NCBI GenBank assembly: GCA_012295275.1
Contig: CM022677.1
Span: 23,684,001 to 23,748,000 of the forward strand
Source of the DNA: Chrysomallon squamiferum
Lineage: Eukaryota > Animalia > Mollusca
Direction of reading: 5' to 3'
DNA: 64,000 bases
Positions within the stretch are counted from its first letter, which is position 1. Each line of letters begins with the position of its first letter. The position numbers and the translations under genes were made by a program. Below are positions 1 to 63,809 of the stretch, in pieces. Under the pieces are notes generated by a model. The model saw only the letters and a list, made by a program, of their open reading frames with translations. It had not been told where the DNA came from and did not search any database.

Positions 1-59
1 ACAACCATATCCATAAAGATCTCAGCTTATGCTTTCCCAAATACTCCAAGGCCACTGAC
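1..59 (-). pseudogene. Degenerate A-type TSR exon of gene 1 with in-frame TGA (22-24)
   Basis: ttttgaag acceptor like other A exons; reads QWPWSIWESIS*DLYGYGC versus A consensus GGWSxWExxSQxxCxVTCGYG. Confidence 0.55.
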
Positions 60-3000
60 CTTCAAAATGTTTTATTAATATTATTATTTTTTTTTTCCTC
101 ATCTTATTCTTTCACAGATGATGTTTATGTAATTACATAGTAACCGTTATTGATATTTTTCATTATTATTATCAGCTCTTTTGCATATCAACAGACAAAA
201 TCTATGGTTCCAAAGGATTCTGGTTTTAAATATTTTATAATTTTATAGTTTACATTTACTCGAAATAATAATGACTTAATCAGCATTTCAGTGTTGTATT
301 AAATTAAAGCTGCCACTGAACAGAAAAAAAAAAAAAAAAAAAAAGAAAAAGAAAAGTATGAACAGAAGAAGATGATGATGAAATTAATTAGTATTAAAGG
401 TAAAAAAAAAAATAAAAAAAAAAAAGCCTGAATTTAGACAGCCATATAATTAATTTTGATGTCCTGAAAAAGCACATCTTAGATAATAATAATAATAATA
501 ATAATAATAAAATAATTATTATATAGATACCAATAGCACTTTTCTTGTTAATAAATAATTAATAAGTGACAATATATATAAAATATTTTTCAGTATTACT
601 TGCCAGCCTAATCAGTATATTTATTAGTTATCAAACAATTTTGAAGATCAGAATCATTCTGCCTGTTCATTCTGCCAGATCTTTCACTTACACATATCTT
701 TTAAATTAATAAATAATTTATTCAGACTAATATAAAACTACCCAGTGAAAGTATGTATTAAAAAACTGTTAATATATATATTGTATATATTTTTTTTGAA
801 AACACATATAAGTTTCCCAAATTTGAACAGAATTTCCCATTTATATCTATATTTAACAAAATTTATTAAAAAAGTAATAATAATAACAATAATAATAATA
901 CTAATACTAATACTAATAATACTACTAATAATAATAAGAATAAAAGAATAAGAAGCTTATAAGAATAATTGAGTAATTCAATATCCACAAAGTGCTTATC
1001 CATCCCTGATTTTATATGCAGCTTAATATATTTTTTATTTTATTTTATTTTTTTTTTCTTTATCAACTTACCACTTTTACAAGAATCTCCTCTGCACCGC
1101 TCTAAACGAACCTTATAAAAAACGCCGAAACAATAGCGATTTTTCCCAACACACTCCCTCACTTGGTAGACATGTCTCTCACATGAGCTTTCACACAGAT
1201 CATTGACTGTTGTCCACGACGTCCACCGAGGTCCATTGAACTTATGGTCTGAAGATATTAAAAAAGATAATAACAAAACAAATAATAAATAAAAATCAGA
1301 AGATAAACATAACAAATCTACCACCAGCATATTGTTTCCTTCTTCCTATTTACATTCGAAATGAAATTCGCGTTTGAGGAGATAAAATAAGAAAACAGAA
1401 GTAATAATAACTAAAACTCAAAGGATAATTGTACATATTAAATCTACCAAAACTTTATTTCATTCTTTCTTTCTACCTAGAAATATACAGTAGAAATAGT
1501 TGTGGGGAAAACAAAAACTGATGTACATACGTCTGACACAGCAATCCCGGTAAGTAATAGACTGATCAGGCCCAGGACAATATGAACCACTTGGACTGGG
1601 TGCAGGTTTTGTACATAACCTTTGATGAATAACTTCCTGTTGACAGTTCAATTTACACTTTGTAATCGAATGAACAAACCAGTCATTCCATCCACCATTG
1701 ACTGAAATACAACGTTGCTATTATCGAGCTGAGAGAAAATCATTACATTTTCAAAGTACATTATATTTCTTATAATTTAAAAAATAATCTTACGACACCA
1801 ACGATGGCAATTATTTTGTCTTTATCAAATATATATTCTCCAAAATATACTGAAAAAGAAATTATACTGCATGAATTTTGATCAGTTGTTAAAATGGGAA
1901 AGGACATTTTATAAACATGCTTAATGTTATTCAGGATTGTTTTCTATAAAACAGTTTGTCATTAATGTATTTACTTAATCTGGAGTTAATGGGTAATTTT
2001 TTTTCATTAGGAAATTATTTCTAAATTATCCGAAAAAGTCTCAAAATAGGAAATTGTAAATTTTACTATAATCTGTATTTCAACATATGGATATTTCTGC
2101 ACAGTAAACATATAGTATTCAAACTATGAAGAAGAAATTAGTTTTCATAATCAAAATGTGGTTTCTTGCGTAATGTGGATGTTGACAACAAAAAAACCCT
2201 GCTAATTTGGTATTATTATATTTTGTAATAAGGGTTAAACTTAAAAATTATTTTAGTTTCCTTCCTGTATTTTACTTTTCTTTATCAGTAGTAGTAGCAT
2301 TCCCTTGTAGACTGTGGTTGTATTATCTTAGAATCGTATATCATTCAACATAAAATTCAAAAGAACCCTCTTAAATGCAGCCAGAGGGCGAGAAAAACCA
2401 GTAAGCTGGATTTCTCTCTTATTTTCTTTTTGTTATTTTATTTTTATTTTTTCCCTCCTTGTTGTTTTTGTTTGTTTGTTTTCTTTTTGTTGTTTTATTT
2501 CTTTTTTTACATTACAAAACTGATCAGCTTTCTCATATTGGATAAGGAATATTTTTTTTTTGATGTTTACATGGTACAAATTGTTCAAGCATTATATACA
2601 AACATTATAAATATGCTGATTATACCAATACATTCTTTTAGAACAAAACACTTCTGTTTCTCAGTTTTCGCATTTTGACCTGTACAATTCTTTCCTCCAT
2701 ACATAGGTTGAGGGTTGTCACATTCTCTAATGGAAGAAATTACTTGGTATCCAATTCCACAAGTTACAGGACACTGTAAAAATGTTTTTTGTATCCAAGG
2801 AGACCATTCTCCATCTACTGATGCCAGTGCTTTCTCTGAAAGTAAACTGTTCTAATGTTTTCCATTTCATATATACTTTTAAAATGCATACTGCTAAGGT
2901 GGTTTTATACCAATATATCAGTAAGTAATAATAACAATGTTTTCCAGATGTTGCAGAAATAGGTTTGTGATGGTACCACCACTGTTTTGTTTTTTGGCTT

Positions 3001-63600: not shown

Positions 63601-63809
63601 GTTTTATTTTTTATTTTTTTGAGTCGATGGAATTTGGGGTGGATGGACAATACAAACAGGGAAGTGCAATGTTTCGTGTGGACTCGGTGTGATGAATGCG
63701 ACCATCACTCGGAAATGTGACAACCCGCCACCAGTGTTCCGTGGAAAGTACTGCGTGGGAATCCAGTCCAAAACTGAAACTGTCATATGCAACAGAACAT
63801 GTAAAATTA
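60607..63809 (+). CDS. Gene 4: TSR-repeat gene, 5' part only, divergent from gene 3; continues beyond the window
   Basis: Candidate ATG AAC AG/GTGAAG (60607-60614), exon 61256-61297 (or -61272), micro-exon 61627-61650, TSR exons 62279-62470, 62795-62977, 63624-63809. None appear in the ORF track. Confidence 0.8.
61627..61650 (+). CDS. Gene 4 putative 24-nt micro-exon (ANETTNIS)
   Basis: ttctattccag/GTACAG; a second, damaged copy (25 nt, donor GA) at 62017-62041. Confidence 0.5.
62279..62470 (+). CDS. Gene 4 TSR exon, G-type
   Basis: 192 nt (or from 62259); [63 protein letters not shown]. Confidence 0.88.
62535..62733. repeat. (GA)n microsatellite; representative of dozens of (AG)n, (AAT)n, (AT)n, (AC)n, (TAG)n and (TAGA)n tracts in the window
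   Basis: Directly visible; other long tracts at 5258-5327, 12600-12715, 12934-13030, 43349-43430, 43534-43628, 56250-56370. Confidence 0.95.
62795..62977 (+). CDS. Gene 4 TSR exon containing RGD
   Basis: 183 nt, tag/[66 protein letters not shown]. Confidence 0.9.
63624..63809 (+). CDS. Gene 4 TSR exon
   Basis: 186 nt, tttgag/[67 protein letters not shown]. Confidence 0.88.

Follow-up and report, generated by a model that had tools for sequence, protein, structure and literature searches.

A tandem cluster of thrombospondin-repeat array genes in Chrysomallon squamiferum, a candidate family of adhesion or recognition receptors

A 64-kb stretch of the genome of the mollusc Chrysomallon squamiferum (GenBank assembly GCA_012295275.1, contig CM022677.1, positions 23,684,001 to 23,748,000 of the forward strand; hereafter the window) carries four paralogous genes whose exons mainly encode thrombospondin type 1 repeats (TSRs). 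The evidence supports a real, spliced and tandemly expanded family of TSR-array single-pass proteins, the membrane anchor being predicted. Two of the four exon types that make up the core of these genes are short-loop TSRs overlooked by Pfam. As a whole, the data support an undescribed, lineage-expanded adhesion or recognition family.

Gene structure, repeat types and transcripts

Using a self-built profile and tblastn, 45 TSR-like exons were identified in the window. Three minus-strand genes hold 42 of them and one divergent plus-strand gene holds the other three, the gene layout proposed in a first-pass annotation made from the sequence alone. No further TSR relics were found by either search at E < 0.01. 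All 45 exons have AG and GT flanks and are phase 1-1, and the length of 42 of them is divisible by three. Genes 1 and 2 are complete within the window and genes 3 and 4 cross its ends. Of the four giant receptors initially announced, two therefore stand, each with 18 TSRs, a predicted transmembrane (TM) segment and a 39-codon Y-D-N tail, whereas the other two are partial (six and three TSRs).

Genes 1 and 2 are built alike, with a signal-peptide-like first exon, 18 TSR exons, a hydrophobic exon and a 39-codon last exon, and a Y-D-N-x-x motif lies close to the end of both tails. Their core is a four-exon cassette, A-D-C-B, present four times. Apart from the stalk exons and micro-exons of gene 2, only TSR exons were found in the two ectodomains, and the open reading frame listing yielded no exons of VWA or F5/8C type. 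The short stalk originally described for both genes holds for gene 2 (35 amino acids (aa), two predicted exons) but not for gene 1, in which no stalk exon was found. First exons of all four genes comprise 17 codons plus one base and share an identical donor.

37252..58477, minus strand: gene 1, complete, ~1,200 aa; signal exon, (A-D-C-B)x4, E, F, TM exon, tail exon
58426..58477, minus strand: gene 1 signal-peptide-like exon (prediction), 17 codons plus 1 base
39145..57330, minus strand: gene 1 TSR exons, 18 in all
57330-57157, 55311-55120, 54833-54627, 53315-53142, 52319-52143, 50538-50350, minus strand: gene 1 TSR exons 1-6
49589-49384 (1 nucleotide short), 48078-47905, 47163-46987, 46676-46488, 45941-45735, 45330-45157, minus strand: gene 1 TSR exons 7-12
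44620-44447, 43176-42988, 42580-42374, 41781-41608, 41456-41283, 39330-39145, minus strand: gene 1 TSR exons 13-18
38180..38264, minus strand: gene 1 predicted TM exon; best 19-residue mean hydropathy 1.77, modest
37252..37372, minus strand: gene 1 tail exon, basic, with YDNPVS motif and stop codon
12114..33270, minus strand: gene 2, complete, ~1,260 aa; signal exon, three micro-exons, G, (A-D-C-B)x4, E, two stalk exons, TM exon, tail exon
33219..33270, minus strand: gene 2 signal-peptide-like exon, nearly identical to that of gene 4
32776-32753, 32580-32557, 32400-32377, minus strand: gene 2, three predicted 24-nucleotide phase 1-1 micro-exons ahead of the first TSR
15716..32125, minus strand: gene 2 TSR exons, 18 in all
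32125-31934, 31165-30998, 28795-28604, 28312-28106, 26842-26672, 25453-25277, minus strand: gene 2 TSR exons 1-6
24285-24097, 23742-23536, 22572-22400 (1 nucleotide short), 22121-21945, 21222-21034, 20071-19865, minus strand: gene 2 TSR exons 7-12
18980-18807, 18500-18327, 17753-17565, 17216-17010, 16386-16213, 15888-15716 (1 nucleotide short), minus strand: gene 2 TSR exons 13-18
13275..13919, minus strand: gene 2 predicted Pro-rich stalk exons (13919-13854, 13313-13275)
12770..12857, minus strand: gene 2 predicted TM exon; best 19-residue mean hydropathy 2.72
12114..12234, minus strand: gene 2 tail exon with YDNFVF motif and stop codon

WxxW is present in all 42 intact TSR exons and is followed by six cysteines in 41 of them, which we take to be the THBS1-type layout. 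Exon types C and D are canonical TSP1-type domains, their profiles matching thrombospondin-1 best among solved structures (4.5e-16 and 9.1e-13, respectively). Thrombospondin-1 is still the best match of the short-loop type B (4.7e-6), and all intact A and B exons lack the CxxxCG loop. The type A profile gave no TSR sequence match to solved structures at E ≤ 10. Its predicted model (predicted local distance difference test (pLDDT) 80.5) retrieved entries that contain a TSR by title in 10 of the 12 top structural rows, the best match being weak (Z 4.7, root mean square deviation 3.4, 53 aligned). Compared with the C profile, type A scored E 2.4e-4 and a probability of 44%, and the cysteines align one for one. 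The type B model (pLDDT 87) had no Foldseek match at E ≤ 0.001, and its weak top rows were TSR entries. When 11 single exons were scanned with Pfam TSP_1, one scored above the cut-off, five were sub-threshold and five had no TSR hit. The cysteine count is odd in five exons, all on the minus strand: four have seven and one has five (52319-52143, 25453-25277, 5517-5341, 6554-6390 and 41456-41283). Among the 42 intact exons, four carry an extra cysteine at or before WxxW. Inter-domain or inter-chain disulfides could be formed by such exons.

Expression was assessed from four public runs, three RNA runs from one study and one run of unrecorded kind (contig sets X1 to X4). Contigs were aligned over 13250-27500, and the results apply at contig level to the part of the rows that the tables show. 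The RNA runs containing the genes carry a metatranscriptomic label, which suits the microbe-facing role proposed below, and no tissue label. Exact RNA joins cover 3 of the 15 junctions predicted in this stretch, with 1-4 differences per piece: X1 record 4 joins 25453-25277, 24285-24097 and 23742-23536 (A2-D2-C2) without gaps, and X2 record 8 joins 22033-21945 to 21222-21080 (A3-D3). Both were assigned to gene 2 on the basis of these few differences, the gene 1 counterparts being 67-92% identical. X2 record 6 joins B4-C4-D4 in gene 1 letters (6 and 3 differences, matching the gene 1 prediction). In keeping with the spliced genes first proposed, exact exon joins are thus present in RNA contigs of gene 2 and, judged by sequence, of gene 1. 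X1 record 1 is mixed, C4 being gene-1-like and D4 gene-2-like, which reflects either an allele carrying a further conversion tract or chimerism of the contig; contigs spanning B4-C4-D4 were excluded from the support for gene 2. Two RNA contigs with B-type exons (X2 record 10 and X4 record 22) match no window exon, which means that the window does not contain all exons or copies. The gene 2 stalk exons are not among the RNA pieces listed.

Exon skipping, another feature of the first-pass annotation, is feasible in principle given the phase 1-1 exons, but no skipped form is present among the junction rows listed (15 shown of 56, with repeat noise dominating). RNA depth over the one-base-short B2 exon of gene 2 is low (0.38, 0, 0), and contig depth says nothing on skipping. 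Across 23536-23742 (minus strand), X1 record 4 has six letters fewer than the window, in frame, a difference that X3 record 17 does not have.

The pseudo-exons reported earlier are not supported as such. Three exons are one base short, 49589-49384 in gene 1 and 22572-22400 and 15888-15716 in gene 2. Each missing base lies in or beside a single-letter run, and the downstream frame has no stop and keeps every cysteine. Location in such a run is weak evidence alone, as runs of at least two letters account for 45% of exon bases. Across 15571-16003, the region of the gene 2 E exon, X3 record 13 is longer than the window by one letter (exact place not given), and six of its seven listed differences in this exon are synonymous in the downstream frame; none of the listed pieces comes from the gene 2 B2 exon. 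Assembly errors are likelier than true frameshifts. Overall, the DNA run X3 differs from the window by about 0-3% substitutions in the listed long pieces. A set of 20 classed exonic differences (9 non-synonymous and 11 synonymous, from 40 of 278 rows) was discarded as a measure of polymorphism, since it mixes alleles and paralogs.

Selection and segment exchange

Genes 1 and 2 pair mostly exon for exon, which implies that the four-cassette array is older than their split. Over 14 of 17 exon pairs, leaving out the three one-base-short ones, the ratio of non-synonymous to synonymous substitution rates (dN/dS) is 0.42 (range 0.23-0.90). These TSR exons are thus under purifying selection, and the per-domain dN/dS check suggested in the first-pass annotation brought no positive selection to light.

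Synonymous divergence (dS) varies widely between these exon pairs, from 0.04 to 1.26, and two segments stand out.

16113..17813, minus strand: homogenised D4-C4-B4 tract, its exons sharing 96-97% identity with gene 1 41492-43240
31877..33420, minus strand: gene-4-type 5' segment within gene 2, 85-89% identical to 61101-62535 in the two best blocks, introns included

Most other exon pairs of genes 1 and 2 are 67-83% identical. Introns of the D4-C4-B4 tract exceed the shuffled control (0.87 vs 0.68 and 0.79 vs 0.69). The D3 exon is 92% identical between the two genes, with its flanking introns at background level. The tract and the D3 identity together point to gene conversion. Gene 2 has an upstream element of gene-1/3 type, followed by a signal exon, micro-exons and first TSR of gene-4 type and then a body of gene-1 type, an arrangement that suggests a swapped 5' end. 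As judged from these sequence comparisons, the segment exchange between paralogs put forward in the first-pass annotation is supported. An alternative gene 2 signal exon near 33420 was rejected; it has no phase-1 donor and belongs to the gene-4-type segment. At 17124 (within 17010-17216), X3 shows a single contig at about double depth with the gene 1 letter, a hint of stronger homogenisation between genes 1 and 2 at 17010-17216 in the X3 individual.

Relatives, proposed function and rival explanations

Among 1.84 billion representatives, the A profile found 14 proteins, including 10 from the deep-sea vent snail Gigantopelta aegis, one from Haliotis and one from Batillaria. Nine of the 10 G. 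aegis matches lie on one 40.8-Mb contig, and their names are 'coadhesin-like', 'hemicentin-1-like' or uncharacterised. In seven of nine G. aegis clusters, at least one member has 3-8 counted TSRs together with a signal peptide and, at the C terminus, a hydrophobic helix. The TSRs of these seven TM clusters all lack the CxxxCG loop, like the A and B exons of the window. Spacing from WxxW to cysteine is seven residues in 36 of the 42 window exons; for the G. aegis units the figure is 33 of 37. Pfam TSP_1 had no hits in any of seven scanned G. aegis proteins; in one protein with tandem short-loop TSRs (P0001), Pfam missed TSP_1 and reported a spurious ANAPC4 match above cut-off. Among the proteins compared, the A and B profiles gave their best per-domain scores, low in themselves, with G. 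aegis proteins. A quick domain tree (105 rows x 65 columns) was mostly unresolved; it placed the A exons with repeat 2 of the G. aegis protein P0008 (support 90) and gave no gene-to-gene pairing between the window and G. aegis.

Wider searches added little. The A-profile word-index search of 103-2000-aa proteins retained none of 631 candidates, and that with P0008 found P0008 alone among 873, with no other relative of similar length. The B-profile search retained 12 of 7,992 scored, generic TSR proteins of molluscs, corals and ctenophores at 35-46% identity, and none of 100 pattern matches in metagenome contigs was confirmed with this profile. In the ESM Atlas, feature scores for P0008 were all < 0.9 and TM values all < 0.5, its top feature look-alikes being THSD7 clusters (0.89 and 0.88, under the 0.9 bar).

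Judged by sequence, the nearest relatives are the G. aegis 'coadhesin-like' and 'hemicentin-1-like' proteins with signal peptide, TSRs and TM helix (such as XP_041355826.1, XP_041356405.1, XP_041356563.1, XP_041356393.1 and XP_041356537.1). They share with the window genes a signal peptide, a TSR array, one TM helix and a short tail, as well as short-loop TSRs without a Pfam match, several genes per contig and, in one tail, the motif YDNPVF. They differ in having 3-8 counted TSRs rather than the 18 of genes 1 and 2; moreover, the TM-bearing G. aegis proteins are all short-loop, whereas in the window genes canonical and short-loop repeats alternate within the four-exon cassette. One G. aegis member has a VWA domain, and the names are automatic. 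No functional study of the 'coadhesin-like' or 'hemicentin-1-like' proteins of G. aegis was found in the literature searched. Nor was any paper describing this TSR family, in a search of titles and abstract starts with thin coverage of subscription journals and preprint supplements. 'Thrombospondin' is absent from the main text of three snail genome papers and of a 2026 Peltospira preprint, and 'coadhesin' from all 11 peltospirid-related papers listed. So far as searched, the family is in print solely as automatic names in tables. It is hence new to the literature searched, as the first-pass annotation had it, but not to RefSeq, which already holds relatives as 'coadhesin-like'. The combination of a TSR-only ectodomain with a TM helix is itself already known (THSD7A; an anemone TM-bearing TSR-only protein).

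We tentatively favour a function in adhesion or capture, with the proteins serving as receptors on an epithelium that faces microbes, a reading based on our analysis of the cluster as one of spliced TSR-array genes with a predicted single anchor. The proteins would be secreted to the surface as type I membrane proteins, each a glycosylated rod of 18 disulfide-bonded modules. With canonical and short-loop TSRs in alternation, the rod would present a series of binding sites for glycans or proteins, whether these sit on bacteria or on adjacent surfaces. The Y-D-N tail motif, which resembles the [FY]xNPx[YF] sorting or phosphotyrosine-binding-domain signal, might connect binding with the cytoskeleton or with uptake or recycling. 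What each copy binds could be retuned by duplication, domain shuffling and gene conversion.

Several published observations are in line with this proposal. Five of 26 G. aegis 'coadhesin-like' genes (21 of the 26 annotation rows covered) are enriched in the symbiont-housing oesophageal gland, with a log2 fold change of 6.3-9.9, the enriched genes overall numbering 1,782 of 21,438; five 'coadhesin-like' genes lie together on contig ctg533 (PMC7895826). In C. squamiferum, one 'coadhesin-like' gene is 192-fold enriched in the oesophageal gland, and the tabulated expanded families include two 'coadhesin-like' ones that are species-specific and have three copies each (PMC7142155). Giant clam larvae activate TSR genes while they are being colonised (bioRxiv 2024.02.04.577604). 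In Aiptasia, TSRs promote symbiont colonisation, and a TSR-only protein with a TM helix was put forward as receptor (PMC5446238). Cnidarian TSR-only proteins (rhamnospondin and the TM-bearing Aiptasia protein) and properdin likewise have TSR-only ectodomains with proposed or demonstrated binding of microbes or symbionts, whereas they are mostly secreted and have canonical repeats with WxxWxxW and CSVTCG, a comparison made by description only.

A bolder version of the microbe-facing role is unlikely in our judgement. It would make the cluster a symbiont-capture receptor family of vent snails, Pfam-invisible TSR rods that bind chemosynthetic bacteria at the symbiont-housing epithelium, help set the strain taken up and are independently rebuilt in each species by exon duplication, 5'-end swap and gene conversion. 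If true, TSR-mediated symbiont uptake would extend from cnidarian-algal to mollusc-bacterial symbiosis, in a family overlooked by published receptor inventories. The published receptor inventory of G. aegis and C. squamiferum lists PGRPs, TLRs, lectins and scavenger receptors, without TSR proteins (PMC7895826). For the question of how chemosymbiotic snails choose their bacteria, the cluster offers concrete expressed candidates overlooked by domain scans.

A number of observations weigh against a microbe-facing receptor. As the window sequence stands, the three one-base-short exons carry frameshifts. The exons for signal, TM and tail, like genes 3 and 4, are predictions beyond the RNA-aligned stretch, and the hydropathy of the gene 1 TM exon is moderate. 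None of the 14 exon pairs has dN/dS > 1, although pairwise means can mask single selected sites. The glycosaminoglycan motif WxxWxxW occurs in none of the 42 intact exons and CSVTCG in just seven. The tail motif ends just one of the seven G. aegis TM proteins (P0008). Among the C. squamiferum 'coadhesin-like' genes listed, five belong to the scale-secreting epithelium vs two to the oesophageal gland (PMC7142155). Finally, the published 'coadhesin-like' gene ids (for the oesophageal gland, ctg533-1.7 and ctg533-2.1 among others) cannot be assigned to the window genes or to P0001-P0012, so they are leads only.

A close rival is matrix adhesion in shell or scale tissue, in which the proteins would tether shell-, scale- or cuticle-secreting cells to the organic matrix and the family would have expanded with the evolution of hard parts or mucus; we rate it as somewhat unlikely. 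Its model is coral coadhesin (Acropora millepora B3EWZ3), which spans the membrane, bears multiple TSRs and has been proposed to anchor calicoblastic cells in the matrix (PMC7655939; PMC3748352). The five genes enriched in scale epithelium favour this explanation, and purifying selection and a long repeat rod suit a structural role. On the other hand, the 'coadhesin' label is automatic and not tied to the window genes, and similarly named genes are enriched in the oesophageal gland of two species. In G. aegis, which is not known to bear foot scales, short-loop TSR-TM proteins have expanded as well. Coral coadhesin, found in the coral skeleton, carries further domains such as VWA and F5/8C, for which the open reading frame listing showed no counterpart in window genes 1 and 2. 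Even if matrix adhesion proved correct, the cluster would document a TSR-array family that is remodelled fast and contains a new short-loop variant of the repeat.

The immune, allorecognition or gamete-recognition cluster originally envisaged is a possibility at most. Receptors for gamete recognition or allorecognition, diversified by conversion and exon skipping, are improbable. Tandem paralogs with mosaic identity, all-phase-1 exons and the in-frame six-letter difference of X1 record 4 would fit them, as would the precedent of sea-urchin EBR1, a recognition protein that uses a long array of 27 TSRs in sperm binding (PMC13672419). EBR1, however, has an ADAMTS-like metalloprotease head and CUB repeats, neither of which is present in genes 1 and 2; no exon shows dN/dS > 1, no skipped junction is among the rows listed, and X3 is close to the window in sequence. 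It is just as doubtful that the cluster is decaying, with genes 1 and 2 recent, still-transcribed pseudogenes (one and two real frameshifts) and working copies elsewhere. The three short exons, the B-type RNA contigs unmatched in the window and dN/dS values of 0.7-0.9 in some exon pairs speak for decay, whereas each defect is a single base at a letter run with an open, cysteine-preserving frame downstream, and X3 record 13 has an additional letter across 15571-16003 together with mainly synonymous differences. Least probable of all are divergent, locally duplicated orthologs of a conserved gene such as THSD7. THSD7A/B have the same plan of TSR-only ectodomain, single pass and short tail (the TM helix of genes 1 and 2 being predicted), and THSD7 clusters head the P0008 look-alikes. 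Yet THSD7A has 21 repeats of mixed THBS1-like and F-spondin/C6-like cysteine layouts (PMC8523383), vs 18 in the window genes, of whose exons 41 of 42 have six cysteines after WxxW and in which the F-spondin-type pattern was not found. THSD7A is not among the profile matches in solved structures, no THSD7-named protein is among the named A- or B-profile matches, and the word-index search with P0008 brought up no similar-length relative besides itself. THSD7 is, in addition, not known to be tandemly expanded. Membership thus fails on repeat number and type, in a comparison made by description, the tree containing no THSD7 sequence.

Partial genes and non-coding features

1072..8084, minus strand: gene 3, 5' part; signal exon 8084-8033, six TSRs B-A-D-C-B-A, then window end
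6554-6390, 5517-5341, 3507-3319, 2835-2626, 1701-1531, 1248-1072, minus strand: gene 3 TSR exons
61221..63809, plus strand: gene 4, 5' part; signal exon 61221-61272, micro-exon 61627-61650, then window end
62279-62470, 62795-62977, 63624-63809, plus strand: gene 4 TSR exons, all three canonical, none short-loop
58911..59272, minus strand: conserved non-coding element upstream of gene 1, with copies at 34022-34365 (gene 2) and 8396-8659 (gene 3)

The upstream element precedes the signal exon in genes 1, 2 and 3, in copies of 260-360 bp that are 71-72% alike, and is a candidate promoter or 5' non-coding exon; no copy was found before gene 4. The micro-exons of gene 2, each bearing N-glycosylation sequons, and that of gene 4 (32377-32776, minus strand; 61627-61650, plus strand) have repeated intron sequence on either side and add two sequons each. 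Their number is unequal between the two genes, and a copy at 62017 (plus strand) is one base longer and has no GT donor.

The window is AT-rich, with a GC content of 23-36% per 2-kb bin against 37% for G. aegis, and has many microsatellites. Introns of gene 1 contain minisatellites at 51213-51744, 40922-41265 and 57826-58071 (periods of 53, 60 and 31 bp). At about 25750-26300, in a gene 2 intron, contig depth of run X3 is very high (~24,000 in bin 25626-26101 vs 45-100 typically), which may be read as a high-copy repeat or mobile element.

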